Part shown: positions 30,369-55,572 of the stretch, one piece after another
Layout of the letters: each line of letters opens with the position of its first letter
Position numbering within the stretch: position 1 is the first letter of the stretch
NCBI GenBank assembly: GCA_030647555.1
Contig: JAUSJG010000008.1
Span: 129,467 to 193,466 of the forward strand
Reading direction: 5' to 3'
From: a bacterium
GTDB lineage: Bacteria > Patescibacteriota > Andersenbacteria > UBA10190 > CAIZMI01
Length of the DNA: 64,000 nucleotides
Position numbers and translations under genes: made by a program
The notes under the pieces: model-generated
What the model was told of the DNA's origin: nothing
Databases searched by the model: none
Seen by the model: the letters and a program-made list of their open reading frames with translations, nothing else

Positions 30369-30452
30369 AAGGTCGGACTGCCGAGCGGTCCGACCTTGAT
30401 TGGTGGTAATTAAACGTCCAATGCGGGTCGGACCGCTAAGCAGTCCGACCCG
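30369..30452. repeat. double-hairpin dispersed element (GTCGGAC...GTCCGAC x2), copy 2
   Basis: aaggtcggactgccgagcggtccgaccttgattggtgg...ccaatgcgggtcggaccgctaagcagtccgacccgg. Confidence 0.55.
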
Positions 30453-30490
30453 GCCTTTAAATAAACCGAGTTTCGGATTATATTGAAAAC

Positions 30491-39225: not shown

Positions 39226-39330
39226 ATTTTCAATTTTCAATTTTCAATTTTCAAAAAATTATCAATTACATAATTATCAATTACATAATTATCAATTACA
39301 TAATTATCAATAACATAATTATCAATAACG
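39226..39330. repeat. AT-rich tandem repeats: (TTTTCAA)x4 then (ATTACATAATTATCA)x3 plus (ATAACATAATTATCA)x2
   Basis: Read directly. An inverted TTGATAATT / AATTATCAA partner lies at 39338-39385. Confidence 0.6.
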
Positions 39331-39426
39331 ACGTCATTTGATAATTTATGATTTGAAAATTAATTGAAAATTGGTCATTGATAATTGAAATTTATTGTAT
39401 TCGGTGATTCAGTTCTATGTGCTATT

Positions 39427-40536: not shown

Positions 40537-40539
40537 TTT

Positions 40540-40690
40540 GAAATTTACAGTTTTTAATTTGAAATCAATTTGAAATAATTAAATTTGAAATATCTAAAAC
40601 AGCGTTTTCAAATTAAAATATTAAGTTATTTCAAATTGATTAAAAATTTCAAATTTCAAATTAAAAATTAAGGGTTGGTTTTATGGCATA
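40540..40690. repeat. AT-rich inverted array: (ATTTGAAAT)x5 opposed to (ATTTCAAAT)x4 around a central ctaaaacagcgtttt
   Basis: Read directly. It lies in the intergenic region between ftsW and murG. Confidence 0.55.
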
Positions 40691-40739: not shown

Positions 40740-41936
40740 ATGCGTATCGTTCTAACCGGTGGTGGCTCCGGTGGTCATTTGACGCCTTTGGTTTCGGTTG
40801 CCGATACCCTAAAGCGCATGTATCACGAAGGTGAGATTAGTTTTCCGGAAAGCCGAAATAGTGGCCTTGAAATTAGGTATGTTGGCGTGGTTACAGAAAT
40901 TGATAAGTCGATTCTGGAAAAAGCCGATATTCCATATGAACACATTCCATCGGGCAAAATTAGGCGTTATTTATCGGGCGCGCCGCTTACGGCAATGGAA
41001 ATGTTTGTTCAACTTCCATTCGGAATTTTGCGGGCTTTTTGGCGGATGTATATTTTGATGCCCGAAGTGGTTTTCAGTAAAGGTGGTTACGGATCAATTC
41101 CTGTTGTTATTGCGTCCTGGGTTTATCGGATTCCGATTTTAATGCACGAAACGGATATTGTGCCGGGATTATCTAATAAAAAATTATCGCGCTTTGCATC
41201 GGCGATTGTGGTGGGCTTCCGAAAAGCAGAACAATATTTTAAACAAGATCGGGTTTTTGTCGCCGGTACACCGTTGCGCGAAATCTTTTACAAATTACCG
41301 GACAGAGAAACAGCGCGAAGAGAATTACAATTACATGATCGCAAGCCGGTGTTGTTTGTAACTGGTGGAAGTCAGGGTGCGCAACGGATAAATAACGTGA
41401 TTTTAGAAATGCTGATTCGTGTGTTACCGGATTTTCAGGTGGTGCATCAAGTGGGGCAACTTAATTTGGAACCGGTACAGGAGTTTGTAAGAAGTACGCT
41501 GGGAAATTTTCCAGACATTAGTGATTATCACGTCTTGGGTTTTATCGACGAACGCACGATGGCGAATTGTTTTTCAGCCTCGGATCTTGTTGTTTCCAGG
41601 GCAGGTGGAACAACCCTGGCGGAATTAGCCGTGGCGGGGAAGCCATCTGTTTTAATTCCCTTGGGAGAGTCCGCTAATAATCACCAGTGGGAAAATGCCT
41701 ATTTCTATCGTGAGGCCGGTGCGGCGGTTGTATTAGACGAAAGCAATGTCTCGCCACCTTTGTTAGAAGCAACAATCCGTCGTGTCTTTCAACGTCAAAG
41801 TAATTTAGAATTAATGTCGTCTCGCGTCCGTGAGTTAGCCCGTCCATCCGCGTCGATAGATATAGCGCAATTATTGGTCCAAATGGGTCTTGGCTTCGTG
41901 CCAAGACGAAAATTGGAAGCAGTCAAGGAAAAGTAG
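40740..41936 (+). CDS. murG: UDP-GlcNAc:undecaprenyl-PP-MurNAc-pentapeptide GlcNAc transferase
   Basis: The N-terminus has RIVLTGGGSGGHLTPLVSVAD. The C-terminus has ...VTGGSQGAQRIN... and ...SRAGGTTLAELAVAGKPSVLIP.... Confidence 0.8.
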   Translation: MRIVLTGGGSGGHLTPLVSVADTLKRMYHEGEISFPESRNSGLEIRYVGVVTEIDKSILEKADIPYEHIPSGKIRRYLSGAPLTAMEMFVQLPFGILRAFWRMYILMPEVVFSKGGYGSIPVVIASWVYRIPILMHETDIVPGLSNKKLSRFASAIVVGFRKAEQYFKQDRVFVAGTPLREIFYKLPDRETARRELQLHDRKPVLFVTGGSQGAQRINNVILEMLIRVLPDFQVVHQVGQLNLEPVQEFVRSTLGNFPDISDYHVLGFIDERTMANCFSASDLVVSRAGGTTLAELAVAGKPSVLIPLGESANNHQWENAYFYREAGAAVVLDESNVSPPLLEATIRRVFQRQSNLELMSSRVRELARPSASIDIAQLLVQMGLGFVPRRKLEAVKEK

Positions 41937-42033
41937 CAAAGTCCGTCTTTGCGCCTGCCGGCCATAGCCTTGGCGACGGCTGGAGGCGTTTCAACGCCGA
42001 AGCAATCTCCCGTGGCGTGCTATAATATGCCAG

Positions 42034-42109
42034 TCGTGGGCATGCCAAGGTTGGGAGTTCAGGATTATCACCCAGATCTCGGGGGTTCGATTCCCCTCGT
42101 GTCCACGAT
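42034..42109 (+). other. tRNA-like fragment: canonical T-arm GGGGGTTCGATTCCCCT plus an 8-bp terminal pairing, but no complete cloverleaf
   Basis: The T-arm is at 42081-42097. gtcgtgg (42034-42040) pairs with ccacgat (42103-42109). No D-arm or anticodon arm could be built. caggattatcaccc (42058-42071) is complementary to ggtgataatcctg (42189-42201). Confidence 0.25.
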
Positions 42110-42336: not shown

Positions 42337-42365
42337 TTGACAATTTCCATTTTTGGGAGTATACT
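42337..42365 (+). promoter_or_regulatory. near-consensus sigma70 promoter TTGACA-N17-TATACT at the left edge of the GC-rich island
   Basis: ttgacaatttccatttttgggagtatact. Confidence 0.45.
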
Positions 42366-42371: not shown

Positions 42372-42790
42372 TTAAATTAAAAAGCCAAAGCTCTGTACAC
42401 GATAAATCGCGCATAGCGCTTTGGCGAACAGGAGAGACCCATCCTTCGCTCATGAATGAGCTACGGAGGGCAAGGCGGATCGCAATTTCCACAATTGAAT
42501 AGACGAAGGGATTATGAGCAACAGCGACCTGGGCAAATATACCAGTAGTTCTCATAATCATCCTTTAAAAAGAGCACGGGGTTCTTCGGCGGCCCCTCCC
42601 TTTCGACAAAGGGAGGCCGGGAGGGATTCCGCGCTTCCGTCACTGCACATACTCCTGGCTCAAATTTATTTTATGCCGTATGCAGTATGCGCAGTGACGG
42701 GAAAAAATACCGGTGCTGTCCCGGTTAAATCTGTTTCGGTCGCGCATGACAGTAGCGACCAGTCGTCATAATCCGAAAAGGAAAAGACTC
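42372..42790 (+). ncRNA. candidate highly structured leader / ncRNA (about 420 nt)
   Basis: It carries four perfect hairpins in series: agccaaagc...gctttggcg, gattatgag...ctcataatc, cctccctttcgacaaagggagg and gtcactgcacatac...gtatgcgcagtgac. The 85-aa ORF track call at 42514 is low-complexity. Confidence 0.3.
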
Positions 42791-42991
42791 ATGACGACAA
42801 AGACCAAATTTCTGACCGTGGTGGCAGTGGGCCACCAGTATCGAACGCATGAACTGACCGGGGTTGCTGGCGAAGCGAAGGAAATCGTTCGCCAAGTGGC
42901 CAAACGCACGGATGCGTTTCGCCAGGAATATATCCTCCGGCGGTTGGTTACGCGCGAGCAACGGACGCTCGCACTGGCGACTACTCGATAA
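42791..42991 (+). CDS. hypothetical small basic protein (66 aa)
   Basis: An RBS (aaaaggaaaag) precedes the ATG. MTTKTKFLTVVAVGHQYRTHELTGVAGEAKEIVRQVAKR... Confidence 0.3.
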   Translation: MTTKTKFLTVVAVGHQYRTHELTGVAGEAKEIVRQVAKRTDAFRQEYILRRLVTREQRTLALATTR

Positions 42992-43083
42992 TCGTCGCCA
43001 CGAAAAAACCGACGGCTCTCTGTGGGTGTAGCTGTCGGTGATTAGTAGAAACACCCCTGATCAAAATTTACGGAAGACCAGAC

Positions 43084-43150
43084 ATCGCGTCTCGGTCTTC
43101 CTCCCATCAATGCCTAGTACACCGGCCTAAATTTATTTATTGCCGTTTTG
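43084..43150 (+). promoter_or_regulatory. conserved upstream element copy 1: inverted repeat CAATGCCTAGTACA...TGTACGAGGCATTG around CCGGCCTAAATTTATTTATTGCCG
   Basis: It is about 62 bp and nearly identical to 53081-53146. Confidence 0.55.
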
Positions 43151-43163
43151 TTGTACGAGGCAT

Positions 43164-43205
43164 TGACGGGAAAGTAGTTTTTTAGAGTCGACCAAACCGT
43201 CGCCA
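43164..43205 (+). promoter_or_regulatory. conserved 5'UTR copy 1 (GAGTCGACCAAACCGTCGCCATGGCGGGGAGGTCTTAACAA) with an embedded strong SD
   Basis: The same 42-mer, with 1-2 mismatches, lies at 52141-52182. Confidence 0.55.
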
Positions 43206-43239
43206 TGGCGGGGAGGTCTTAACAATTAGGAGAACAATC

Positions 43240-43551
43240 ATGGCAGGAACGTACAACGTGATCGTCGATGCCGCCGCCCCCGCCACGACCTTGAAAATCG
43301 GTTTTGGCAGTCCGGCCCAGAACGACCAGATCGTGAAGGATGCGGTCGCGGCCGTGAAGGCGCTCGGCTTGACCGGCGGGAAGCTGGTCAAGTTGAACGG
43401 GCCGGCTTCGTTGCCGGTGGCCGTCGCCATCGGGCACGAGGTGGCCCACCTGTTCGGGGCCGTCGCGGTGTTCGACCCGAAACTCGGGAACAAATACGTC
43501 GTGGTGGTGAGCCACGACCCCGATTTCGCGGTCGGTAGCGTCATCGAGTAG
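43240..43551 (+). CDS. island gene A: 103-aa protein resembling a degenerate (P-loop-less) copy of the NK-like domain of genes B and C
   Basis: LVKLNGPASLPVAVAIGHEVAHLFG aligns positionally with VILCGPPRSGKSCMRQGLKDAIKII of B. VVVVSHDPDFAVGSV resembles LVVVAEIHSDYNGAEDTV of B. The comparison was made by eye. Confidence 0.4.
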   Translation: MAGTYNVIVDAAAPATTLKIGFGSPAQNDQIVKDAVAAVKALGLTGGKLVKLNGPASLPVAVAIGHEVAHLFGAVAVFDPKLGNKYVVVVSHDPDFAVGSVIE

Positions 43552-43711
43552 GGTTCTTTCAGGCCAAATCATGGTTGATGCGGCCTAAATCGTACACGAA
43601 GGAGGTCCGAGTATGACGCTCGACCTCCTTCCTTTTCTTCAGAGCGCGACAAACGTTGTCGTGCGCTCAAGTAAAAGATTTTAAACCCGCCGCGGCGGGA
43701 AGGAGAAAATC

Positions 43712-44293
43712 ATGAAAGTCATACTTTGTGGTCCCCCGCGGAGCGGGAAGTCCTGCATGAGGCAGGGCTTAAAGGATGCGATTAAGATTATTCCGGGTGC
43801 ACCGTATCCGTATGTTATCACGGCGTGCCCGGACGGTGAGGGGGCTTGGTTCCAGGAAACTGTGAACCAGGACCCTGATTTGGCCAAGAGGTGCAAGGAT
43901 GCATACAAGGCCAAGTTCACGCCGGAATTTGTGCAGAGGATAGCGGATTCTGTGCAAAATTGCTCGCTACCGCTCACGCTCGTGGATATCGGTGGCATCC
44001 CGAGCGCGGAGAACGAGGCGATTTGCGCCTCGGCCACCCACGCCATTTTGTTGGCAGGCGACCTCGGCCGTTTGCCCGAGTGGCACGCGTTTTGCAAAAA
44101 ACTCGGGCTCGTTGTTGTTGCCGAGATCCACTCGGACTACAATGGGGCCGAGGACACCGTCCCCCAACTCGGCGAGGACGGCATCTATCGCGGTTCGGTT
44201 CACCATCTTGAACGAGGTGAACAGACCGCCGCCCGCCCGACGATTCGGGCGCTGGCCGAGATTCTCGTCGGGATGGTTACCGACAAGAATTGA
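43712..44293 (+). CDS. island gene B: small P-loop NTPase, nucleoside/polynucleotide-kinase-like (193 aa)
   Basis: Walker A MKVILCGPPRSGKS lies at the extreme N-terminus. The LTLVDIGG block is Walker-B-like. An RBS (ggaaggag) precedes the start. Confidence 0.55.
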   Translation: MKVILCGPPRSGKSCMRQGLKDAIKIIPGAPYPYVITACPDGEGAWFQETVNQDPDLAKRCKDAYKAKFTPEFVQRIADSVQNCSLPLTLVDIGGIPSAENEAICASATHAILLAGDLGRLPEWHAFCKKLGLVVVAEIHSDYNGAEDTVPQLGEDGIYRGSVHHLERGEQTAARPTIRALAEILVGMVTDKN

Positions 44294-44427
44294 TTTCTAA
44301 TCAACCAACGGTTGTGGGTTATCCTGTAAAACCCTCTTCTGATTCGAGAGTGTGTACTCTCGCTGATGACGCCGAAAGGCAGAAATCAGAAACTGAAATC
44401 AAAAAAAATTTTCGCGGAGGAGAACCG

Positions 44428-46122
44428 ATGCGAAGAGTAATTGTATGCGGGCCACCGCATTCGGGCAAGTCGGTGTTCCTGGCTAACCTGCAAAGGTTGT
44501 TGCCAGTTGAGCACCACATGCTCATCTTCGGTGCCCCCGATGGGGAGTGGCATTGGACCAACGGGGCCAACCAATCCCTCGTTCGCGAGACCCGCCAAAA
44601 GCGGAGTTTTTCGGATGACTGGTGCGACGGCATTCTTAATGCCATCGCGCAAGCCGAGCAACGGCTCGTTCTGGTTGACACCGGAGGAAAAAGACTCTCG
44701 CCGAACGACCGGATTTTCCGGGCGTGCGACGCCTTCATTATTCTCTCTTCTTCCAAGGAGGAGATAATTGAGTGGCGCCGCTTCGGCGAGGAAAACGGAT
44801 GCCTGTGCATTGCTGAATTGGATTCGGCGCTGCAAGGTGAAGATCAAATTTATCTGGACGCGAGCGATGGAATTCTCCGCGGACGGATAACTGGTCTGGA
44901 ACGGGGGCAGGAGATTGATTCCCCAGTTCTGGATGCAGTGGCAGGAAAACTTCGTAAAGTCATTGAGGTGAATGCCGAGATGACGGAAGCGGAGCTTCTG
45001 GCCAATATCAACGGGGCTAAGCTGGTTGACCACCTTGGGATCACGGATCGGACTGATCCTTACCTTGGTGTACGGCCATGGCACACGGCGCCGGCGTTGA
45101 AAATCACGGCCGTGGCGCGGAGGTTGGAAACGGTGCGGATTTGGAATGTCCGTGCCAGTTTTCTTTCGTGCGCGTTTGCGACAACACTGCCCGGCAAGGT
45201 GGAGCTCTTCGGAGTTTCCGATGGATATGTTCCATTGCCGAAGGTTGCGCCAAACGGCGACGGCGCGGGCGATCTGGCGTGGGAAGTCGCGGAATTTTCC
45301 GACTACACTTTGGTGGAGTATCGGAAAAACGGATTTTTCACAAAAGAGAAACTCGCCGATGTTGTGCCGCCGGTAGTGAACACCCGAAAGGGTGTTGTGC
45401 TGGCGACAGACGGTCCGCCGATCTGGCTGGACGCGACGATCGCAAGATCGTACGCGAAAGCCGGTGTGCCGTTTGTGGCTGTGTTTGTACCCGTTGAGTC
45501 GGGGCGAGTACAGCAGGACGGAACGCGGTGGGATGAGGCGCATCCGCAGGATGGGCCGTGCGTCGTTATTTATGGCGAAGCGGAAAAGGTGGGGGAAGTA
45601 ATTTCCGTGCCGATCTCGCTTCTGAAGTGGAATGGCGGCGGACGGCAGTGGCAACTGGGTTCCGGTGAGGTCGTAAAAGACCGACCGCATAGCCACGTGG
45701 CGACACATCCGTCGGTTTTGCCACTTGTCGGCGAAGCGCTTGCGCGAATTGAGTCCGCCGGGCGCGACAATATTGTGGAGGAAATAGACTTCGGACGGAC
45801 GGTGGGTGAGATGATTTGCGTCGAAACAAGTAATGACGACGAGATCGTTTTTGCACAACGTCAGAACCGAAAAGGACTGACGCGGTTTGTGAAAAACCGG
45901 CAACCCACGTTGTGTAACAGTGTTACGGTTTGTCTCACGAAAGCGGAAGGAAACGGCCATTACGTTTTGGCCACCGCTTTTGTGGGAAAGAGAGCGCCGG
46001 CAGAGCCGTGGGACGTGGAATGGGCGACGGAGCAATCCGTCCCGTTCTGGAACACCCACGCGCTTATCTGGGGCGCGGAAACTTTTTTGGCGGACACTGA
46101 AACGAATCGGTGTCCGTGGTAA
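44428..46122 (+). CDS. island gene C: N-terminal NK-like P-loop domain (paralogue of B) fused to an uncharacterised C-terminal region of about 380 aa
   Basis: MRRVIVCGPPHSGKSV, APDGEWHW (compare CPDGEGAW in B) and RLVLVDTGG are present. The start was trimmed to the ATG preceded by ggaggag; the ORF track start at 44290 lies inside the 3' end of gene B. Confidence 0.55.
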   Translation: MRRVIVCGPPHSGKSVFLANLQRLLPVEHHMLIFGAPDGEWHWTNGANQSLVRETRQKRSFSDDWCDGILNAIAQAEQRLVLVDTGGKRLSPNDRIFRACDAFIILSSSKEEIIEWRRFGEENGCLCIAELDSALQGEDQIYLDASDGILRGRITGLERGQEIDSPVLDAVAGKLRKVIEVNAEMTEAELLANINGAKLVDHLGITDRTDPYLGVRPWHTAPALKITAVARRLETVRIWNVRASFLSCAFATTLPGKVELFGVSDGYVPLPKVAPNGDGAGDLAWEVAEFSDYTLVEYRKNGFFTKEKLADVVPPVVNTRKGVVLATDGPPIWLDATIARSYAKAGVPFVAVFVPVESGRVQQDGTRWDEAHPQDGPCVVIYGEAEKVGEVISVPISLLKWNGGGRQWQLGSGEVVKDRPHSHVATHPSVLPLVGEALARIESAGRDNIVEEIDFGRTVGEMICVETSNDDEIVFAQRQNRKGLTRFVKNRQPTLCNSVTVCLTKAEGNGHYVLATAFVGKRAPAEPWDVEWATEQSVPFWNTHALIWGAETFLADTETNRCPW

Positions 46123-46132
46123 GGAACAAAAA

Positions 46133-46564
46133 ATGAAGACGTATGCAGTGGCAGTGGATGGTGGGCGGACGGGACACGCGGTGGCAACCCTGCGGGCCGA
46201 GATCAACCTCGGTCTGAAAAAGGGCTACGCGGGATTCCTTCAGGAAAAGCAGGAGGTCATTGACTTCCTGAAGGACCTGTACCGCACGGCAGTCGCGGCG
46301 GGACGGAACTACGTCCCGGTCTGCATCCAGCAGACGGAGATCGTCTACGCGTACCAGACTGGCGATGGTCCGGTAGCGGACGCCGAACCGGCATTGACCC
46401 TTTTTTCCGACAAGTCGCCACTTTATGCGGCGGACATGTCGGACGATCAGTGGAAGGCCGCCGTCGAGGAATTGGCAGCCGCGTTGGCTGATCGGTTCCA
46501 ACAGTTCCGGGTGTACGTGTCGTACATCCAAGTGGAGGTGAAGATCCTCCAGCAGGTGAAGTAG
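46133..46564 (+). CDS. island gene D: hypothetical 143-aa protein
   Basis: An RBS (aaggaac) precedes the ATG. MKTYAVAVDGGRTGHAVATL weakly resembles the N-terminus of gene A (MAGTYNVIVDAAAPATT). Confidence 0.4.
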   Translation: MKTYAVAVDGGRTGHAVATLRAEINLGLKKGYAGFLQEKQEVIDFLKDLYRTAVAAGRNYVPVCIQQTEIVYAYQTGDGPVADAEPALTLFSDKSPLYAADMSDDQWKAAVEELAAALADRFQQFRVYVSYIQVEVKILQQVK

Positions 46565-46588
46565 TACTTCTCCTGCGAATCGATCTTC

Positions 46589-46628
46589 GGCAAGTCCACG
46601 CATTGCGCGCGGACTTGCCACTTTTTTA
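46589..46628 (+). terminator. intrinsic terminator ggcaagtccacgcattgcgcgcggacttgcc + ACTTTTTT, followed by a second hairpin gtgttcgcgatgcgcgaacac
   Basis: A 9-bp GC stem followed by a U-tract. Confidence 0.55.
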
Positions 46629-46706
46629 AAGTTTATCAGTGGAAGTGTTCGCGATGCGCGAACACCTGATGGGCTTTTAGAAGTTTTTTTGAAAAGGAGA
46701 CACAGG

Positions 46707-47054
46707 GTGAAAAAAATCCTGTGGATGTCGCGCCACCGGCCGACCGCGAGGCAGATTAATGCCTTGCGCCAGATGCATGGCGCGGACGCGGTGGTGGAAC
46801 AGGAGGACCGTCCGTTTGACGACGCGCGAGAAATCGTGTGCCGGTACAGGCGAGATGGTTACGACGACATGGTGGTCGTCGCTCCGCTTTCAGTAATCGC
46901 GGTTTTGTGCCAGGAAGGCATTAGACCGCTTTGGTCCGAAGCCACCGAGGAAAACGATCCGAGAAAGATCGAATTTCGCGGCGCGCGCGGGCAAGGGTAT
47001 CGTTTCGTAAGGTTCCGCCGCATTAAGTGCGTGCGGGTTGAATTCGAAGAATAA
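46707..47054 (+). CDS. island gene E: 115-aa protein, a possible second degenerate NK-like paralogue
   Basis: There is a GTG start with an RBS (aaaggaga). KKILWMSRHRPTARQINALRQM aligns with KVILCGPPRSGKSCMRQGLKDA, but the GKS is lost. This is by-eye inference. Confidence 0.35.
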   Translation: MKKILWMSRHRPTARQINALRQMHGADAVVEQEDRPFDDAREIVCRYRRDGYDDMVVVAPLSVIAVLCQEGIRPLWSEATEENDPRKIEFRGARGQGYRFVRFRRIKCVRVEFEE

Positions 47055-47064
47055 GGAAAATGAG

Positions 47065-48279
47065 ATGAACGAAAAAATGAAAGCGGCGATTGCTCTGACG
47101 TCGAAGGTTCAGAGTGTAATGCGGGATGTGGAGACTCGGCACATTGGGCGCGCAGATGTGGTGCAAGCCACGTTTTTGGCGCTCGTGTCGGGGCGACCCG
47201 CGTTTTTCCTCGGCAGTCCCGGAACCGACAAAACCGGGGCGGTGCAGGACATGGCCAGGCAAATTGCCGGCGCCGTGTTCTATGATGTGTTGATGCCGAC
47301 CATCGTGTCGGTTGAGCAACTCCTTGTTGAGTCCACCTCGATCGAGGAAGCGTCCACAGCGGGAGGCGGAAAGTCAATCCGTACCCGTGACACGCTGGGA
47401 CGCGCCGCGTTGGCGCACTTGCTCTTTGCTGACGAGATCTGGAAAGCGGAACCCCGTGTTCTGCAGACCTTGATCGACTTGAGCAAGGGCGACGGGGTGC
47501 GTCACGAAGGCCAGATGGTGGCAACACCGTTGCTGGCTTTTCTCGCAGCATCGAACGAGTTGCCGGAAGCCGAGGGCAACCTCGGAGCGATCTGGTCTCG
47601 GATGACCATCCGCGTGGTGGTAAATCCGTTGGATCGCGCGGGCAAAAATGAGCTGGTGAAAGCCCGGCTCGCTCGCGCTACCGGAGGTAGCAAGACGGCC
47701 ACGCAGACGCTGACGCTCGCAGACATTGAAACTTTGCGAACGGCGCGAAAATACGTCGATATCCCGCAAGGCGTCATTGACGCAGTGTTGGATGTCTACC
47801 AGGAACTTGTTGACGACAAGTCAACGGACTTTTCCTGGGCGTGGGCGGATGACCGGCGGTTCGGTCGCGTGTTCGACGTCATGCAGGCGAAAGCTCTGCT
47901 TGACGGACGGACAGTGGTCAGCAAGCAGGATTTGGCGGTGCTGGAGTGGTTGCTCTGGGACGTTCCCGAGCACATTCCAGTCGTCAAAGCGAAGCTTGCT
48001 CCGTACTGTCGGACGCCGTTTTCCGACGCGCAGGAGGCGGTAGATGCACTGCTCACTCCGGGCGGAGTGGTCGAGTTGGTGCGAAACGGGGACAGGGTCA
48101 AGGGTGTTCAGGCTATCACGCAGTGTGAGGCCGCCCTGACCGAGCTGAAACGTCTCAAGGGGGAGGCGGACAGCGGGACGTCGTCTAGAATTGCCGACTT
48201 GGTAAAACAAGTCGAGGCAGTTAAAGATGACGTGATCGCAGTCGTGACCGGGGCCAAAATGCCCCAAAGGGGAAACTAA
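47065..48279 (+). CDS. MoxR-like AAA+ ATPase with a non-canonical Walker A (GSPGTDKT)
   Basis: VVQATFLALVSGRPAFFLGSPGTDKTG is the MoxR N-terminus. LLFADEIWKAEPRVLQTLIDL matches the Walker B / sensor region hhhhDE(I)(N/W)(R/K)A. The start was trimmed to MNEKMKAAIA after aaggaaaa. Confidence 0.7.
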   Translation: MNEKMKAAIALTSKVQSVMRDVETRHIGRADVVQATFLALVSGRPAFFLGSPGTDKTGAVQDMARQIAGAVFYDVLMPTIVSVEQLLVESTSIEEASTAGGGKSIRTRDTLGRAALAHLLFADEIWKAEPRVLQTLIDLSKGDGVRHEGQMVATPLLAFLAASNELPEAEGNLGAIWSRMTIRVVVNPLDRAGKNELVKARLARATGGSKTATQTLTLADIETLRTARKYVDIPQGVIDAVLDVYQELVDDKSTDFSWAWADDRRFGRVFDVMQAKALLDGRTVVSKQDLAVLEWLLWDVPEHIPVVKAKLAPYCRTPFSDAQEAVDALLTPGGVVELVRNGDRVKGVQAITQCEAALTELKRLKGEADSGTSSRIADLVKQVEAVKDDVIAVVTGAKMPQRGN

Positions 48280-48280
48280 G

Positions 48281-49957
48281 ATGGCCGAGAAGAAAGTCCG
48301 GCCGCTCACCCGGCAGGAGCTGATGCCCCAGCTGGTGACGGACGCGGATGCCTTCACGGCCCTGCGTTACATCCGTCACCGTGAGCAAATGCCGGCATTA
48401 CCCGAGCTTGCGGAAAAAGGACAGGAAGTCCTACCCGGAAGCGAAGGCGTGTTGGCGGATTTGTATGACGCGTTGTGGGATCCGGAGCCGAGCCTCAAGG
48501 AAGAGGTGGCGCCGGATCGGGAGTATTGGAAAAAACTCCTGGGCCAAACAATTGAAACGGCGGCCTTTCAGGAGTTGCACGCGGCTACACAGCTTAAGGA
48601 TCTGCAATCGGTCCTTGGGACAATCGCGATGGGCGAATCAGTCCTCGCGTTGGTATCAAAAAAGGACCGGGATGAACTCCAAAAGTTGAAAGAGGCGACG
48701 CAGGAAGCGGAAGACGTGGCGGACGAGGCGGGGCAGGCCGAAGCAAACGCGCAAGTGGCGCAAATGCTGGCGGATGCTGCTGCAGAACAGTCCGCGGGCG
48801 CGGGACAATCAGGTCAGCCGCAAACCGGTAAGCCTTCGGGCAAACCGGGAAGTGGCAAGGGACAGATGAGTCCCGACCAAGCGCGGAAAATCGCCAACGA
48901 GCTGGCGAAGACGGCGGCAAAAGCGCAAGCCGATGCCAAAGCCGCGCGGGAACAGGCCGATGAGAAACGGCTCAACGCGGAAATTCAGGCCGAGGATTTG
49001 TTGGGACAACCCGGCAGTGACAAGGCTGAGAAAAAACTGCGTGAGTTGACGCGAATCGGTTTGCAGGCCATCAAAGGTGCTCAAGCGAAGGTGGAGGAAG
49101 TTTCCGAAACCATCGAAGCTTGGGGGTTGGAGGATGGCGAGCTGACGCGCCAAGGGATTCCCGAAGCGTTGGCGCTTTTGCAACGCATGAAGCGAAGCGA
49201 AGCGCTGAAAAAGTTCGCCGGCCTTTTGGGTCGCCTGCGCAAAATCGCGGCGCGGAAAGCGCGTGCCAAAGTTTCGGGAGAAGGAGTGCGGGTCACGGTT
49301 CCGGAAACGGGTCGCGATATTCGCCGCGCTCACACCTCCGAATTGGTTGCACTTACTTCACCAGCCCTTCGTGTTAAAGGATTAACACGTTGGGCACGCG
49401 GTGAACTGCGGTTGGTAGGCCAGCGCGCCAAGCAAAAGCTTGGCCACGGTCCGGTGATCGTCTGTGAAGACGGATCCGGTTCGATGGATGGAGCCAAGCA
49501 ACAGTGGGCGAAAGGTGTGACGTTGTCACTCGCCCACTACGCGAAGATCCAAAAGCGGTCGTTCGGATGGGTGCTTTTTGACTCTGCTGTAAAGCAGGCG
49601 AAGGGTTACCCGCAAGGACGATTGTCTGCCGAGCAGATGCTGGAGCTGGCCGAGTCGCGGGCCGGCGGCGGAACGAATTTCGAAGTTCCGCTTCGCAAAG
49701 CCATGGAGATGATTCAGAAAGAAGGCCTCAAAAAAGCCGACATCTGTTTTATCACCGATGGCGAATGCGCGGTGAGCGATGAGTTTCTCCGGGAATTTCT
49801 GGCGGTCAAGAAGACGCACGAGGTCAACGTATTCACGGTTTTATGTGATGTTGGCTCGACGTCCGATGCGACCGTACGGCAGTTCTCGGATCGAGTGGTT
49901 CGCGTTTCCAGCTTCACGGCAGAAGAAGCGGAAAGTGCGGTGTTTGGTTCTTTGTAG
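48281..49957 (+). CDS. von Willebrand factor A (VWA) domain protein with a complete MIDAS; the N-terminal region plus a low-complexity acidic/Ala-Gln linker give a CobT/ViaA-like architecture
   Basis: VIVCEDGSGSMDG is DxSxS. ...GGTNFE supplies the Thr and ...FITDGEC the Asp. The start codon abuts the MoxR stop, consistent with translational coupling. Confidence 0.7.
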   Translation: MAEKKVRPLTRQELMPQLVTDADAFTALRYIRHREQMPALPELAEKGQEVLPGSEGVLADLYDALWDPEPSLKEEVAPDREYWKKLLGQTIETAAFQELHAATQLKDLQSVLGTIAMGESVLALVSKKDRDELQKLKEATQEAEDVADEAGQAEANAQVAQMLADAAAEQSAGAGQSGQPQTGKPSGKPGSGKGQMSPDQARKIANELAKTAAKAQADAKAAREQADEKRLNAEIQAEDLLGQPGSDKAEKKLRELTRIGLQAIKGAQAKVEEVSETIEAWGLEDGELTRQGIPEALALLQRMKRSEALKKFAGLLGRLRKIAARKARAKVSGEGVRVTVPETGRDIRRAHTSELVALTSPALRVKGLTRWARGELRLVGQRAKQKLGHGPVIVCEDGSGSMDGAKQQWAKGVTLSLAHYAKIQKRSFGWVLFDSAVKQAKGYPQGRLSAEQMLELAESRAGGGTNFEVPLRKAMEMIQKEGLKKADICFITDGECAVSDEFLREFLAVKKTHEVNVFTVLCDVGSTSDATVRQFSDRVVRVSSFTAEEAESAVFGSL

Positions 49958-49981
49958 CAGTAATTCTGCCACCGTTTGGGG

Positions 49982-50014
49982 AGTCCGGTTTTTGACTCCC
50001 CTCTTTTTTCTTCC
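49982..50014 (+). terminator. intrinsic terminator ggggagtccggtttttgactcccc + TCTTTTTTC
   Basis: An 8-bp stem followed by a U-tract. Confidence 0.55.
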
Positions 50015-50076
50015 TTTCCAGCTTCGTGTTGGAAGGAAAGAATTGAAGTAAACACAAAAACAAAAGGAGGCCTACC

Positions 50077-52038
50077 ATGGCCGAAGAAAAGTTGATTGTT
50101 TTGTTGGAAACCAGGGCGGGCAAGAATCCTGGCGAAGCGGTTGCCACCCACAACAGGCGGCAAATCGTCTTTTTGCCCCGAGGAACAACGGTTGGAGTCA
50201 ATGTCCGCGTCGTACTCGAAGAGATTACGACTAAAAAGGACAGCAACGGCCGTTCGATGTATCGCGGCGTACCCGCGCCAGTTGAGTACGTTGACAAGTG
50301 GAAGATCAACGGGGACGGAAGAGTTTCCAAAATCACCGTCTCTAAGGATTGGCTCGGCGGCGAACGGGAGGAAGGCGTAATTGAAACGCGTCAACCCGCC
50401 ACGCGTGACGGGTCACCGTGGACACAGACCGAAAGCACAGTAAGTTGGGGTGCAACTCTGGCAAACTGTGCCGTTGATCTCGTGGACACAACGACTACTC
50501 CGTTGGAAACGGAGTATGTCGAAGCGGGTCAACTCGTCTGGAGAAAGACGAGTGAACGAGTGGGGAAAAATACGCGTCGCGTTACCGTCACGGGTATTCG
50601 CGTAACCGCGTTAGATGCCACAACGTGGCAACCTGCCTATCCGCCAGACTGGCAGATTTCAGCGTCTGTGGCGTACGATGGCGGAACAGTTTCGACCAGC
50701 GTAACGTGGGCGAACGCGCCCAAAGAAACGCGGGACGAGATCGAGAACCGTTATTGTGTGTGCGCTTGCAGTCGACAGCGATACGATGTTCAGAATTCCG
50801 ATGGTTACGCCAAGTGCGAAAAGTGTCGGGAGAAAGAACACTGCGTGCGCTGTGGTAAGCAGGTCAAGGTTGCGGTCATTGCTGACCGCCTGATCTGCGC
50901 GAACTGCAGACCGTATGAAGATCGGGAACAGCTCATTAATCGGGTTGTGCCTAATCAGACACGGCAGGAGTTGGCGCAACAAGCGACACGGCTTTTGGCT
51001 GGAAATGTTGTGCCACGGGAGGCGGGAGAAGCGATTGTTCGCTCCACGCTCGGTCAAGTTGAACCGGATTGGAAACGTAATGGCGTAGTCGAGAAGTGTG
51101 TTGGGTACGCCTGGTATTACTTCTGCGAGGAGGGAGTCTACGGTTCCAAGTTTCCGTCGGCAGCGCTGCAGATTCTGCAGGGACTTCCGCAGGCGACCGG
51201 TAACGGCCTTGTTGACCTGGTTTCTTGGGTGGCTGGTCGTCAAAAACAGGAGGAGTGTGAGCGTTGTGGTGACTTCTTCTGTGAAAGTCAGGCTGGGAGA
51301 TTCTTCACTCCTTCGCCGAGCGAAAGTGAATTGCAAAACCTTTGTGTAGCAGTTCGGCTTCGCGGGTCGGAGGCAGATCGTATCGAGGCCCTACAGAAGT
51401 ATCGGGAACTGGTCGAAAAGCTAGGTTCCGATGCTAAGCAGGTAAGCGAAATCGCGGAAATCCTAAACTCGGATGAGCAGGACTACGCAGCAGTTCTTGT
51501 CAAAATTCACAACCTCGGAAAAGATCTGGCTTCGGCTGAACGAGGAGAAATTCTCGTGAATTTCGGCGGTCACTTTCGCATGATGGGCTACACTGGCCAG
51601 GCTCAATATTGGGTCATTCGGCCAGATGGTTCAGAACGCGAGCCTGACGAAGTTGATTACCGGAAACGGTACACTTCGGAAGGTAATAAAAAGTGGTGGC
51701 TGGTTAGTTCGGATGAGTTGGCGATTTCGTGGTTTAAGGGCACTACTGCCTCGAGCCATCAATGTGTCGTCGACAAACTTCCGGCTGGTGGGTGCACGCC
51801 CGAGCAACTGGCAACTGTTGCTCAACTCGAGCAAGAGCTTTCGGCTCGGTTCGAGGGCTCTCATGGTTGCAGTGGTGATCCGAGTCCTAACATCGGTGAG
51901 GGATGGAACCTCAAGTCGAAGGATGAACCGGACGTGGATGAACCCTACGAAATCGGTCCGCCCGCTCCAGCCAACACGTTGGATGTCCACAAACTTTTCG
52001 GCGGGCAGGTGCGAAAAAAACCCGCCGGTCGAAAGTAG
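50077..52038 (+). CDS. island gene F: 653-aa protein with a TRAM/OB-like N-terminus and two Cys-rich zinc-ribbon clusters
   Basis: The RBS is aaaaggagg. GEAVATHNRRQIVFLPRGTTVGVNVRVVLEEI follows a TRAM-like pattern. CVCACSRQRYD...CEKCREKEHCVRCGKQ...CANCRP and CERCGDFFCE are Cys clusters. Confidence 0.5.
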   Translation: MAEEKLIVLLETRAGKNPGEAVATHNRRQIVFLPRGTTVGVNVRVVLEEITTKKDSNGRSMYRGVPAPVEYVDKWKINGDGRVSKITVSKDWLGGEREEGVIETRQPATRDGSPWTQTESTVSWGATLANCAVDLVDTTTTPLETEYVEAGQLVWRKTSERVGKNTRRVTVTGIRVTALDATTWQPAYPPDWQISASVAYDGGTVSTSVTWANAPKETRDEIENRYCVCACSRQRYDVQNSDGYAKCEKCREKEHCVRCGKQVKVAVIADRLICANCRPYEDREQLINRVVPNQTRQELAQQATRLLAGNVVPREAGEAIVRSTLGQVEPDWKRNGVVEKCVGYAWYYFCEEGVYGSKFPSAALQILQGLPQATGNGLVDLVSWVAGRQKQEECERCGDFFCESQAGRFFTPSPSESELQNLCVAVRLRGSEADRIEALQKYRELVEKLGSDAKQVSEIAEILNSDEQDYAAVLVKIHNLGKDLASAERGEILVNFGGHFRMMGYTGQAQYWVIRPDGSEREPDEVDYRKRYTSEGNKKWWLVSSDELAISWFKGTTASSHQCVVDKLPAGGCTPEQLATVAQLEQELSARFEGSHGCSGDPSPNIGEGWNLKSKDEPDVDEPYEIGPPAPANTLDVHKLFGGQVRKKPAGRK

Positions 52039-52054
52039 TTTCACTGTTCTTTTT

Positions 52055-52090
52055 GGGGTCGTTGTTGGATACAACGACCCCTCTTTTCTC
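52055..52090 (+). terminator. intrinsic terminator ggggtcgttgttggatacaacgacccc + TCTTTTCTC
   Basis: An 11-bp stem. The same hairpin recurs at 52993-53026. Confidence 0.55.
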
Positions 52091-52140
52091 TAGCTCATGA
52101 GTGCTAGTCGCACTTGGTGAGCTGGAGTGAAAGTTTTTTC

Positions 52141-52182
52141 GGAGTCGACCAACCCGTCGCCATGGCGGGGAGGTCTTAACAA
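52141..52182 (+). promoter_or_regulatory. conserved 5'UTR copy 2 (GGAGTCGACCAACCCGTCGCCATGGCGGGGAGGTCTTAACAA)
   Basis: Matches 43164-43205. Confidence 0.55.
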
Positions 52183-52195
52183 CGGGAGAAAAAAC

Positions 52196-52948
52196 ATGGC
52201 GCGTTTCATTATGGTGGTGGTGATGATGATGGTGGTGGTGACCGCGCGGGCCGAGACGTTGACCGGAGAAAAGGTCGACGTTAGGATCGACGTGGAAGGC
52301 GTGTCCACGCGGTTTTTTGAGCCGCGAGATATCGCGGGTACGGTGGACGGAGGGTCGCAGGATGCGACCTATCGGTTCCGATACACCCTTCTCCAGCCCG
52401 GCGATGCGTATTCGATCGCGGTGCAATCACGGTCGAATGGTCTTCGGTACGGCATTGGAGTCGCCGTCGATGGCCGCTGTATCCTGACCGGCATGAAGGT
52501 GCCGGCGACGGTACAAATGGCCTCGAGTTGGCCGAACATGTACGTCGTTGGTGGCCGCGGTGGCGAGTTTCGCGGCTGGCGGGAGGATGCCGGAAACATC
52601 CGGCGGTTCGTGGTTTCCAGTGAGGACCGGTCGCTGGCGGCGACGCTTTGGAACGATCGATCCGCAACGGGGACGATCGTTGTCTCCATCTTCCGAGAAA
52701 CCCCATCGCAGGAGCCCATGATGAAGGGCGAGCGCGGGGTAAAAGGGCTCGGGACGGCCGCCGGCGAGCGCGAGGAATCGCGCGTCGTGTCGGTAGACTT
52801 TACATCTCGCCCGGTCGCGTACGAAGTCTTCGTACTTCGGTATGCGTCGAAACCCGAGTTGAAGAAGCTCGGGGTGTGGACGGAGGAGGCAGTCCCGAAC
52901 CGGTTCTGGCCGACGGAGAAACCGTTCATCGGCCGAATCCCCGAGTAG
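52196..52948 (+). CDS. island gene G: secreted protein (signal peptide MARFIMVVVMMMVVVTARA, about 250 aa), function unknown
   Basis: It has a hydrophobic N-terminus with an ARA cleavage-like site. The start was trimmed to the Met after gggagaaaaaac. Confidence 0.5.
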   Translation: MARFIMVVVMMMVVVTARAETLTGEKVDVRIDVEGVSTRFFEPRDIAGTVDGGSQDATYRFRYTLLQPGDAYSIAVQSRSNGLRYGIGVAVDGRCILTGMKVPATVQMASSWPNMYVVGGRGGEFRGWREDAGNIRRFVVSSEDRSLAATLWNDRSATGTIVVSIFRETPSQEPMMKGERGVKGLGTAAGEREESRVVSVDFTSRPVAYEVFVLRYASKPELKKLGVWTEEAVPNRFWPTEKPFIGRIPE

Positions 52949-52992
52949 TAGTTTTTCCCCGAAAAGGATTTCGGGACGAGTGTTCTTTGTCC

Positions 52993-53026
52993 GGGGTCGT
53001 TGTTGGAAACAACGACCCCGCTTTTC
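52993..53026 (+). terminator. intrinsic terminator ggggtcgttgttggaaacaacgacccc + GCTTTTC
   Basis: Near-identical to the hairpin at 52055. Confidence 0.55.
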
Positions 53027-53080
53027 TAAGGTTCATCGGAAACAGTTCGGTGGGTCTTAACGAAAGAACAAAATCTTTTC

Positions 53081-53146
53081 CATCAATGCCTAGTACACCG
53101 GCCTAAATTTATTTATTGCCGACAGTTGTACGAGGCATTGACGGGA
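53081..53146 (+). promoter_or_regulatory. conserved upstream inverted-repeat element copy 2
   Basis: catcaatgcctagtacaccggcctaaatttatttattgccgacagttgtacgaggcattgacggga. Confidence 0.55.
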
Positions 53147-53191
53147 CAAGAAAAAATGAGGTCGTTCTTAACATAACAAAGGGGACAAAAA

Positions 53192-53536
53192 ATGACGCGC
53201 ATGGAACGTGTCGTTGATTGGTTTTTGGGTGTGTATTTTCCGTTCATTACTATTTTTTCTGGCTTGTTTTTCGTGGTGTGGGTATATTTGACCACCAGGC
53301 CGGTACACGATTTTCCGGAATGGGGTTTTGTCTTGTTTATCTGTTGGGTGGTGGTGGCTGTGCCGGCTCTTCCTTTGATGATCCTCACGATAATTCAGGA
53401 AAAAATTCGGCGGATGAAAGATGAGGCCCAGTTTTATCGGGACTGCTACGTCATCACTTTTTGTGATGAGGGTGGCATCACCGAAGAGTCGGCCGTCGAA
53501 ACTGGAAATCCCTACCAAAGTCCGATTTATGAGTGA
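53192..53536 (+). CDS. island gene H: small 2-TM membrane protein (114 aa)
   Basis: The RBS is aaaggggac. There are two hydrophobic helices, then a soluble tail ending CDEGGITEESAVETG. Confidence 0.45.
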   Translation: MTRMERVVDWFLGVYFPFITIFSGLFFVVWVYLTTRPVHDFPEWGFVLFICWVVVAVPALPLMILTIIQEKIRRMKDEAQFYRDCYVITFCDEGGITEESAVETGNPYQSPIYE

Positions 53537-53689: not shown

Positions 53690-53736
53690 CGGAGATTGCT
53701 TCGCCTCGCTGTTGCGATGGCTCGCAAAGACTGCGT
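53690..53736. repeat. short dispersed repeat CGGAGATTGCTTCG-N17-CTCGCAAAGAC, intergenic copy
   Basis: The copy at 54889-54933 shares both ends and lies inside murC. Confidence 0.45.
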
Positions 53737-53769
53737 TACACAGTCGCTAAAAGGCTATTGAGTCTAAAA

Positions 53770-54046
53770 ATCCCCCGTCGCTACCTCCTTCGCTAAAGCT
53801 TCGGAGGTCAAGAAAGCTTCGGGGGACGCAGTGAGAATCAGACCCTGGGAGGTCGGTTACGATCCGCCCGCCCATTTTAATAAATGGGCGAGGTTCAATT
53901 TTCTCTCCTGACCGTGTCGCCTAAAAAGCACGCGGGAATCAAACAGGCACCTCGGTCCGTATCATTTCTCACTGCGCCCACCGTAGCTCATCAGAGCGAA
54001 GGAGGGTTAACGACTCGATAGCCTTTTGGCGGTTTTTTTGTGCGTG
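53770..54046 (+). ncRNA. candidate structured leader / attenuator RNA upstream of murC (about 280 nt, ending in an intrinsic terminator)
   Basis: There are long-range pairings: cgtcgctacctccttcgct with agcgaaggagggttaacgac, and gacgcagtgagaa with ttctcactgcg. The terminal gccttttggc + GGTTTTTTT hairpin lies about 100 nt before the murC ATG. Confidence 0.3.
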
Positions 54047-54135
54047 AATGATGAATTATGATATATGATTTATGAATATCGACGGTTAGTTTCTCATAAA
54101 TCATCATTCATAAATCATTATTCATTTTGTGAATG
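54041..54135. repeat. AATGATGA-family AT-rich inverted repeat (gtgaatgatgaattatgat...atcatcattcataaatcattattcat)
   Basis: Read directly. Related copies at 10741, 19075 and 33896. Confidence 0.4.
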
Positions 54136-54153: not shown

Positions 54154-55572
54154 ATGAATCAAACTTTCAAATCAGGTACAAAAGTGTATTGTTTAGGCGT
54201 TGGTGGTATCGGTCTTTCCGGTGTGGCACAGTGGATGAAAGAATTGGGTTGTGAAGTAAAAGGTTCCGATCGTGCAGTGTCATCTGTGACGCAAATGCTG
54301 GAAACCAAAGGTGTTTTAACAAAAATTGAAGAAGTGACAGAAAGTGTGCCGGAGAATACGGATATTGTTGTCTATTCCGACGCCTTACCATTTGAACATC
54401 CAGCCCGTGTTTTTGCTCGCGCGAAGGGAATCCGCGAAATGAATTACGCGCAATGTTTGGGGTTGTTGACGGAAGGGTATCGGTGTATTGCCGTTGCGGG
54501 AAGTCACGGCAAATCTACCACCACCGCGCTCATTGCCCACATCTTAACGGAGGCTGGTTTAGATCCCACTGTTGTTGTTGGAACAAAAGTTCCGACGCTG
54601 GGGAATGTAAATTTTCGTTTCGGGAGAAGCGATATTGTAGTGGTTGAGGCCGATGAATTTCGGAGCCATTTTCTGGAGCTTTCTCCAACGGTCGCAATTA
54701 TCAATAATATCGATCACGATCATGTCGATGTTTTTCCGACAATAGAATCTTATGTTGATGCTTTTAAAAAATTTGTTGTAAAAATAAAAGTTGGTGGGGA
54801 ACTTATATTGAATGTACACGATTCATATACTGAGAAATTGGCAGGGGAACGGGACGATATAAATGTAACTTTTTTTGAAAAGCGCGACGCGGAGATTGCT
54901 TCGGCTAGCCTGCGGGCAGCCTCGCAAAGACGGAATTATGTTGTTGATTTTCAAAAATATGACAACGGTCGGCAGTATTTTTCGGTGTCAAAAAATAATG
55001 TTTCGATGGGTGATTTTAATATTGCATTTCCAGGCGACCACATGTTGCTGGATGCTGTAGCTGCGATTGCGGCCGCAGTTCCTTTTCTGGATGATCTGGA
55101 AAAAATTCGTAACGCCATGGCCACTTTTCGTGGTACGTGGCGGCGTTTTGAGTTACTCGGAAAATATAAAAGTGCGACGGTGATTTCTGATTACGCGCAT
55201 CATCCAACAGAGGTGAAGGCGTTACTGCGTGGGACTCGACAGGCCTATCCAAATAAAAAAATTGTCATCGTTTTTCAACCCCATCAGAGCTCAAGAACAC
55301 AGGCATTTGGCAATGATTTTATTGAAGCGCTATCGCTGGCCGACGAAGTCCTTTTGGTTGAAGTATTTAGTGTTGCCGGACGAGATAATCCAAAAGATTT
55401 TTCCACTGATCGACATTGGGTTGAGGTCTTAAAACAGCGGGGCAAGGAGGCCTATTACGCTGAAGACTTGTTTGTGGCGGAGAAAATGTTGCGTGAAACA
55501 GAACCGACGGATGAGATTTTGTTGTTCGTGGGGGCGGGATCTATCGATCAATTGGCGCGGAAAATGGTCTAA
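54154..55572 (+). CDS. murC: UDP-N-acetylmuramate--L-alanine ligase
   Basis: The N-terminus has VYCLGVGGIGLSGVAQWMKELGCEVKGSD. The Mur-ligase P-loop AVAGSHGKSTTTALIA is present. Confidence 0.8.
   Translation: MNQTFKSGTKVYCLGVGGIGLSGVAQWMKELGCEVKGSDRAVSSVTQMLETKGVLTKIEEVTESVPENTDIVVYSDALPFEHPARVFARAKGIREMNYAQCLGLLTEGYRCIAVAGSHGKSTTTALIAHILTEAGLDPTVVVGTKVPTLGNVNFRFGRSDIVVVEADEFRSHFLELSPTVAIINNIDHDHVDVFPTIESYVDAFKKFVVKIKVGGELILNVHDSYTEKLAGERDDINVTFFEKRDAEIASASLRAASQRRNYVVDFQKYDNGRQYFSVSKNNVSMGDFNIAFPGDHMLLDAVAAIAAAVPFLDDLEKIRNAMATFRGTWRRFELLGKYKSATVISDYAHHPTEVKALLRGTRQAYPNKKIVIVFQPHQSSRTQAFGNDFIEALSLADEVLLVEVFSVAGRDNPKDFSTDRHWVEVLKQRGKEAYYAEDLFVAEKMLRETEPTDEILLFVGAGSIDQLARKMV
54889..54933. repeat. 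in-frame copy of the CGGAGATTGCTTCG...CTCGCAAAGAC repeat inside murC
   Basis: It encodes ...AEIASASLRAASQRR... in a segment that looks like an insertion between Mur-ligase domains. Confidence 0.45.

Follow-up and report, generated by a model that had tools for sequence, protein, structure and literature searches.

The 64-kb window analysed here (a stretch of 64,000 nt from bacterial contig JAUSJG010000008.1) carries three copies of an inverted-repeat element of 68-70 nt, whose arms pair in each copy even where their inner sequences are unrelated. The copies stand before genes of a stand-alone Csx3-AAA/MoxR-VWA island, and further copies occur in three other metagenome contigs. It is suggested, tentatively and with slightly less than even confidence, that the element is a transcribed leader or intercistronic RNA hairpin and at the same time a site at which regulatory cassettes are anchored for recombination. 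The stem-loop would then act in cis at the single-strand level, most likely as RNA in plus-strand leaders and intercistronic regions, and would be a signal for binding, processing or stability, for example an RNase III-type site or the site of a protein encoded in the island. Together with a leader containing a U-tract, a GC hairpin and a Shine-Dalgarno (SD) site, and with a terminator unit, it could belong to a small kit of regulatory modules that are portable. As near-identical sequences within one genome, the copies might also be anchors for the gain, loss or swap of gene modules (G, H or the whole A-G block).

A preliminary description of this DNA had reported an inverted repeat, a leader and a terminator hairpin, each duplicated within the island. 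All three repeat classes are present in the sequence. The two closest copies of the element, IR1 and IR2 (Table 1), show 100% identity in one block of 42 nt (43104-43145 = 53080-53121) and another of 22 nt (43150-43171 = 53125-53146), and their sole difference is in the 5-6 nt between these blocks, which read ttttgt in IR1 and acagt in IR2. Some positions and dimensions had to be revised. The start of the element given at 53081 was right, but that given at 43084 was not, as the sequence 'catcaatgcc' begins at 43105, about 21 nt higher. The leader motif 'gagtcgacc' begins at 43186 and 52143 instead of 43164 and 52141, and the arms, described as 14 bp, are 20 nt long, complementary at 18 of 20 positions and 30 nt apart. 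The third copy, IR0, has diverged from IR1; its outer stem is kept, its inner stem is different and its loop reads CTCAAATTTATTTTATGCCG. The outer 12 nt are thus common to both types, while the inner arms contain ACATAC in IR0 and CTAGTACA in IR1 and IR2, each self-complementary. The loop motif was observed three times, against 0.35 expected by chance from shuffles.

Contigs retrieved through protein homologues proved to be the useful comparators, namely L014 (JGI 3300009537) and, from two ENA assemblies, L028 and L029. The closest relative, L014, is colinear with window positions 43181-52004 (genes A to F) at 82.8% nucleotide identity. It starts 5 nt before an element copy upstream of A, in which the outer stem and loop are recognisably shared, a bulged T is found where other copies show a mismatch, and the inner arms are of different sequence, still pairing (TTTGATCAAGCT / AGCTTG-TCAAA). 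Both L028 and L029 encode a 77% identical homologue of the basic 66-aa protein whose gene follows IR0 in the window, and both have an IR1-type copy that is identical to IR1 at 67 of 70 positions. An IR0-type copy in L029 has an identical outer stem, an extra G-C pair resulting from insertions on both arms, and an apical helix changed from GGC/GCC to CGAC/GTCG. When a covariance model of these copies (R1) was run on the window and 11 related loci it gave only seven matches, all on the plus strand, and all seven copies share one orientation relative to the downstream genes.

The fold common to all copies consists of an outer helix (P1), a mismatch or bulge, a second helix (P2), an asymmetric internal loop, a short helix (P3) and the terminal loop. 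P1 is a helix of 12 bp, TTCCRTCANTGC / GCANTGACGGRA; six copies have both arms preserved, and in four of these position 5 is an A.C. P2 varies from 6 to 12 bp and is free in sequence yet always complementary, and P3 has 4 bp; in IR1 the predicted stems are 12, 8 and 4 bp. The terminal loop is A/U-rich and 14-17 nt long (YYAAATTTATTTWW; AAATTTATTT-type). Folding z-scores range from -5.5 to -7.8. The inner arms of IR0, of IR1 and IR2, and of the L014 copy are unrelated in sequence and each set pairs with itself, which is the signature of a hairpin and not of a half-site shared by one protein.

Covariation among the copies is supportive of this fold. In the alignment, which was fitted to the model, 87.3% of the cells hold standard pairs, compared with 33-52% after shifting the partners by 1-3 columns. 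Of the 24 pairs, 7 have changes in both partners, a number reached by one of 500 shuffles, and the covariation score of 0.204 was reached by none of 500 (shuffled mean 0.116). Double-sided changes across homologues are what would be expected of a conserved structured RNA or single-stranded DNA hairpin in general.

Synteny breaks and mosaic conservation

The element marks breaks in synteny between the window and two of its relatives. L014 has neither G, IR2 nor H; 3' of F it has a different terminator and about 460 nt of non-coding DNA, followed by murC. In L028, homology to the window ends at the right edge of the element, directly after GACGGGAAA, and the DNA beyond is unrelated. It comprises about 400 nt without a convincing open reading frame (ORF), then a second GGAAGACC hairpin and a second element at the contig end, so that L028 has two copies within 500 bp. 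The modular, cassette-like gene gain suggested in the preliminary description is supported by both comparisons.

The similarity of the element to its counterparts is also out of step with its surroundings. IR1 and the L028 copy are 96% identical and adjoin the 66-aa gene, which is 70% identical at the nucleotide level with third positions saturated. IR1 and the L014 copy are 59% identical and adjoin flanks that are 83-95% identical; the spacers of the window and L014, measured along the window (A-B ~95%, D-E ~89%, VWA-F ~87%), are in fact more similar than the coding DNA (82.8%). The divergence of the element therefore does not track that of the surrounding DNA. Such comparisons indicate that copies in one genome are kept alike, whereas between lineages the element is exchanged or replaced, possibly by recombination.

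A selfish or mobile palindromic repeat, of the miniature inverted-repeat transposable element (MITE), repetitive extragenic palindrome (REP) or Correia-like type, could have spread via its terminal inverted repeats and acquired any regulatory role secondarily. The conserved termini and variable interior, the near-identical copies within a genome, the decoupling of similarity from neighbours, the contig breaks at the element and the two closely spaced copies in L028 all agree with this explanation. However, no target-site duplication or flanking direct repeats could be read at any copy, no copies exist in the other ~50 kb of host DNA of the window or of 12 related loci, and none of the 11 island proteins matches a transposase, RAYT or integrase in Pfam, PADLOC or NCBIfam. 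In addition, the orthologous copies IR0 and that of L029 evolve in place with compensating changes. We consider this origin quite unlikely, and the element was rejected as a typical MITE or REP on the lack of target duplication and of copies outside the island in the window.

All four informative contigs (L010, L014, L028 and L029) begin or end within the element, which is the usual effect of a repeat on an assembler. The Logan unitigs of SRR13727527 (L027, L010 and L026), an independent assembly, are identical to the window sequence and are interrupted right at the 42-nt repeat. Since the repeat is collapsed at k=31, the unitig graph permits either an integrated order L027-L010-L026 or L027-L026 together with a circle of 9,976 bp. 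The order of the island in the window thus follows the choice of the original assembler, the SRR13727527 unitigs ending exactly in the 42-nt repeat. The contiguity of the A-F block with murC in L014 supports integration in the chromosome.

This ambiguity bears on a further explanation, by which the element is a structure-specific recombination site (attC-like, an IS200/IS608-like hairpin or the site of an unlinked recombinase) and the 9,976-bp block from IR1 to IR2 can be excised. Direct hairpin repeats with a conserved internal mismatch or bulge do flank blocks of variable content, and the k=31 graph fits a circular molecule of that size equally well. On the other hand, neither RYYYAAC nor GTTRRRY core sites could be read on either strand, the island has no recombinase gene, the 'cassette' of ~10 kb would hold nine genes with terminators of their own, and the A-F block of L014 runs to murC without a second copy of the element. 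A recombination site therefore seems very unlikely to us, and an integron attC in particular was rejected for want of core motifs and of an integrase match among the 11 island proteins, and because one 'cassette' is 10 kb long.

Promoter context and the operator question

The reading of the element as RNA draws on the strong promoter match at 42337, on the lack of promoters in the spacers containing the element despite strong terminators, and on the uniform orientation of the copies. IR0 lies within a structured and conserved leader, where it begins 12 nt after hairpins that are conserved between the window and L029. These hairpins show compensatory changes and several G.U pairs on the plus strand (A.C on the opposite strand). 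In an RNAalifold prediction a GACGA/UCGUC helix encloses the hairpin just upstream, IR0 and two downstream hairpins, and ends shortly 5' of the small gene's SD site; the two sequences do not differ in this helix, and covariation therefore lends it no support. A long structured leader or non-coding RNA covering 42372-42790 (+) and L029 55-443 is conserved between the samples, its changes being compensatory, and Rfam has no match to it. One of the leader hairpins, CCTCCCTTT-loop-AAAGGGAGG..GGGAGGGATTC, recurs at 1750-1797 on the minus strand, between two host genes.

The 66-aa ORF itself is a real coding gene. Its differences from L028 are distributed 11/10/39 over the three codon positions, with 30 synonymous and 15 non-synonymous codon changes. 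The protein has no match in Pfam, PADLOC, NCBIfam or the PDB and only one homologue was found. From a two-sequence alignment, AlphaFold2 predicts a single long helix with a predicted local distance difference test score of 86, an uninformative result.

The preliminary description held that the arms look like an operator for a dimeric regulator. This is not supported by the geometry of the element. The half-sites of a dimer operator would be adjacent or up to about one helical turn apart, whereas the conserved outer 12-mers are ~58 bp apart from centre to centre, the full arms are separated by 30 nt and there is no overlap with a recognisable promoter. A more general DNA-level explanation is that a regulator binds the outer repeats (TTCCRTCANTGC / GCANTGACGGRA) as a tetramer, by looping or on an extruded cruciform, with the AT-rich centre as promoter core and the 66-aa basic protein, protein D (Mvol_0529 family) or a TrmB-type protein as candidate regulators. 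The element lies 46-89 nt 5' of three start codons and downstream of the preceding terminators, as a control site might, and its outer repeats are kept in all copies. A predicted DNA-binding protein is encoded in the island, related clusters are flanked by TrmB genes, and wobble and A.C cells without strand bias would be expected of a DNA palindrome. Set against this, scanning and manual reading found no sigma-70-type hexamer pair in or next to any copy on either strand, and one L028 copy precedes the ~400 nt that lack a convincing ORF. The inner arms differ within one genome and yet are complementary, which is not required of a half-site for a shared protein, and the structure predicted for the small protein is one long helix, not a helix-turn-helix or ribbon-helix-helix fold. 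Binding at the DNA level is in our view unlikely. Other promoter types were considered on reading the sequence: the GG-N10-GC spacing of sigma-54 promoters is absent from the element, and the Bacteroidetes-type -33/-7 arrangement was rejected.

Several points nevertheless weigh against the favoured reading of a transcribed hairpin. The covariation comes from four independent lineages only, and was counted on an alignment that had itself been fitted to the model. Non-Watson-Crick cells comprise 11 G.T and 9 A.C, at 6 and 5 sites respectively, and standard pairs make up 87.3% on the plus strand versus 86.1% on the minus strand; with no strand bias, these cells do not single out plus-strand RNA from minus-strand RNA, single-stranded DNA or a cruciform. 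Template switching can also produce compensatory changes in quasi-palindromes in the absence of selection. IR2 stands downstream of a strong terminator, so it would be transcribed only via read-through or from an unrecognised promoter. Transcription of IR1 and IR2 is inferred, as are the strand, the trans-acting factor and recombination as the means of module exchange. The element is confined to the island within the window by covariance model R1, and motif and fold searches, a generic hairpin scan and the covariance model did not find it in the more distant homologous operons L011, L015, L016, L019, L020, L022 and L025, where protein C is 54-75% identical. The preliminary description had held that absence upstream of homologous operons would refute its reading; such absence is seen in those seven, and the element is present in L014.

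Nor was the element found in genome, metagenome, viral, phage or plasmid collections. Genome contigs matching a degenerate pattern of loop plus right arm did so by a coding coincidence, the KNLFFAGE...DVDG flavoprotein motif, and the metagenome contig matching this pattern was an unrelated ORF in L021, in a collection that evidently does not contain L014. Viral contigs gave no match and then two, both unrelated GC-rich inverted repeats. BLAST against phages and plasmids gave no match to the element, and Rfam 15 had none on it at the gathering threshold or at E<=1.

A more specific form of the RNA hypothesis would have the hairpins act, by analogy, as nut/put-like sites for N-type processive antitermination from the promoter at 42337 through at least five intrinsic terminators. 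The hairpins might load the 66-aa arginine-rich helical protein onto RNA polymerase, or act alone, and P2 would be a recognition helix that is fast-evolving and exchangeable. If true, an antitermination circuit would control a defence-like Csx3-AAA / MoxR-VWA island in a Patescibacteria-type bacterium; the chance of this is, we believe, slim.

The island and its regulatory modules

The island lies between murG (40740-41936) and murC (54154-55572), inside a cell-wall gene cluster with mraY, ftsW and murG on one side and murC and murB on the other. G+C content averages ~42% in the window and is 54-60% per kb block from ~43.0 to 53.0 kb. The plus strand carries every island gene. Annotation of the 11 island proteins was by Pfam, PADLOC and NCBIfam scans, and neither a CRISPR array nor cas genes are found in the island. 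Genes A and B jointly cover one PADLOC 'Csx3-AAA' model and are therefore two halves of a split gene (43240-44293), between which stands a strong terminator. The product of F (50077-52038) has several zinc-ribbon-like CxxC pairs and no Pfam, PADLOC or NCBIfam match; relatives have proteins of 207-1081 aa in its place. Many metagenome contigs carry homologous clusters, some of them from sources naming Patescibacteria, and TrmB and HicAB genes often adjoin these clusters.

Table 1. Features of the island and its upstream region, in order of position in the window
Feature	Position	Strand	Evidence or remark
Strong sigma-70-type promoter match	42337-42365	+	TTGACA-17-TATACT, 11/12; only one upstream of island (promoter scan)
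Structured leader of 66-aa gene	42480-42790	+	Several hairpins, plus-strand G.U pairs, compensatory changes vs L029; contains IR0
IR0, diverged third copy upstream of 66-aa gene	42635-42702	+	Repeat search, fold, covariance model
66-aa basic protein gene	42791-42991	+	Between IR0 and IR1
Hairpin GGAAGACC...GGTCTTCC directly before IR1	43071-43100	+	Same hairpin before both element copies in L028
IR1, hairpin element upstream of A (Csx3)	43102-43171	+	Inverted-repeat search, folding, covariance model
Leader repeat copy 1, upstream of A	43178-43239	+	U-tract, GACC/GGTC + CCGTC/GGCGG hairpin, then SD site of A
Gene A (Csx3 domain)	43240-43551	+	PADLOC 'Csx3-AAA' model positions 11-99
Gene B (P-loop)	43712-44293	+	PADLOC 'Csx3-AAA' model positions 108-285
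Gene C, AAA-Csx3	44428-46122	+	
Gene D, Mvol_0529 family, 'DNA binding C-ter'	46133-46564	+	
Gene E	46689-47054	+	
RavA/bpMoxR-like ATPase gene	47038-48279	+	
ViaA-like VWA protein gene	48281-49957	+	
Gene F, 653-aa protein	50077-52038	+	
Terminator unit T1, after F	52055-52098	+	Core 52055-52081
Unrelated hairpin before leader copy 2, where IR element would be	52093-52122	+	Read from sequence
Leader repeat copy 2, upstream of G	52135-52195	+	Repeat search, folding
Gene G, secreted 250-aa protein	52196-52948	+	
Terminator unit T2, after G	52993-53036	+	Core 52993-53019
IR2, hairpin element upstream of H	53078-53146	+	93% identical to IR1
Truncated leader upstream of H	53147-53191	+	Retains GAGGTCgtTCTTAACA and SD site; without GC hairpin
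Gene H, 114-aa membrane protein	53192-53536	+	

The two full leader copies are 94% identical over 48 nt (43178-43225 vs 52135-52182), and in L014 the 48-nt leader comes after the element at 86% identity. H has IR2 and a shortened leader and G has the full leader without the element; the region upstream of A is therefore the complete version, of which G and H each have a part. Folded as single sequences, the 48-nt leaders have an invariant GC hairpin flanked by a helix of the U-tract and the SD site, and the AG/UU -> CG/CG difference between the A and G copies leaves the pairing of U-tract and SD site intact. The consensus fold of three leader sequences recovered only the invariant GC hairpin and no covariation. 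A five-codon mini-ORF, ATGGCGGGGAGGTCTTAA (MAGRS*), which overlaps the palindrome GCCATGGC and lacks its own SD site, is conserved in both copies (43206-43223 and 52163-52180) and in L014.

Terminator units T1 and T2 are 86% identical over 44 nt and were the top-scoring terminator-like sites in the terminator scan of the region; both fit the definition of an intrinsic terminator, and their 27-mer had no match in 100 shuffles. Strong terminators are found 3' of A, D, the VWA gene, F, G and H, and no promoter could be recognised behind any of them. The internal spacers 43552-43711, 46565-46688 and 49958-50076 are laid out alike: a strong terminator comes first, then another hairpin unrelated to it, a stretch rich in A/T (AAGTA/AAGTT...) and lastly an SD site.

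Other structured or repeated DNA was seen in the window. A 71-nt tRNA-like element at 42018-42108 (+) (GGGCAUG...GGGGGUUCGAUUCCCCU CGUGUCC A) has a T-arm and an acceptor stem with a G3.U pair, and an extended -10 lies before it (TGcTATAAT, 42018-42026). It folds like a cloverleaf and is not called by ARAGORN. Its match to the Rfam tmRNA model is below the gathering score (26.2 bits, E=2e-7) and spans model positions 1-374, so it concerns the tRNA-like domain only. Upstream of murC, about 350 nt of non-coding, hairpin-rich DNA with a terminator at its end (53690-54040, +; L014 9085-9445) share the block GGTYCAATTTTCTCTCCTGA with L014 and have no Rfam match. Long AT-rich inverted repeats of ATGATTTATGA / TCATAAATCAT-type words precede ftsW, murG and murC (39317-39386, 40528-40676 and 54045-54125), and another is found at 19.1 kb (19055-19123), with similar words before murC of L014 and at L016 1694-1781; these words may be a host-wide promoter or regulator motif. 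Long GC-rich palindromes with GGTCGGACC / GGTCCGACC words at 6970-7027, 18628-18675 and 30368-30453 are possibly a host repeat family.

Comparison with known systems

Regulation in Patescibacteria (candidate phyla radiation) is almost unstudied, and here a stand-alone Csx3-AAA/MoxR-VWA island offers a concrete cis-element that can be tested and for which the comparative support is real, if thin. The distribution of the element is narrow and any function is proposed from sequence comparison; if it were merely a recombination-prone repeat it would be a routine feature. It was rejected as an intrinsic terminator, having a loop region of 26-30 nt and an A-rich 3' flank, with a U6 run in IR1 only, 8 nt off.

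By analogy, the nearest mechanistic models appear to be the RNase III sites of T7 and lambda and the nut/put sites. The RNase III hairpins of T7 early mRNA and of the lambda N leader are imperfect, of ~60-70 nt and about two helical turns, with an internal mismatch. The element is like them in size, mismatch, repetition between co-oriented cistrons and place in leaders, but the T7 and lambda sites are not known to need a conserved terminal loop. The likeness to lambda nut or HK022 put together with N is one of arrangement, since a promoter, an RNA hairpin, a gene for a small arginine-rich protein and several terminators follow one another and the hairpin is repeated downstream. In contrast to nut and put, the element has no similarity to boxA or boxB and a far longer stem, and no homology to N could be detected in the small protein.

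Correia/NEMIS and REP repeats are genome-wide and of high copy number, those of the Correia type with TA target duplications. They too are small inverted repeats between genes, and can be transcribed along with these and processed as hairpins; the present element differs in being restricted to the island within the window and in having no target duplication. For the 48-nt leader only, the pairing of the U-tract with the AGGAG/GGGAG SD sequence in single-sequence folds recalls masking of the SD site by fourU-type elements, although the three-sequence consensus gives just the invariant GC hairpin.

Considered as a phenomenon of genome evolution, the element has its closest described parallel, by analogy, in the early-promoter stem-loop (PeSL) cassettes of T4-type phages, where recombination between copies shuffles genes and can yield mini-circles (PMC2839356, Arbiol et al. 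2010). PeSLs are likewise short repeated stem-loop modules between small non-core genes, found at the boundaries of indels and replacements between close relatives (PMC2839356), and the element lies at just such limits when the window is compared with L014 and L028. A PeSL combines a strong sigma-70-like early promoter with a terminator stem-loop (PMC2839356), whereas no promoter consensus was found in the element, which has a loop region of 26-30 nt and no U-tract, and the terminator is a separate duplicated unit. The host is a phage in the one case and an island of a bacterial chromosome in the other. The pattern found here is unusual: fixed ends and a fixed loop go with an inner helix that varies freely yet always pairs, a genome's own copies are all but the same, and similarity between genomes is decoupled from that of the neighbours. 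The island is also a small natural example of hairpin, leader and terminator modules being reused as new genes, here G and H, join an existing set.

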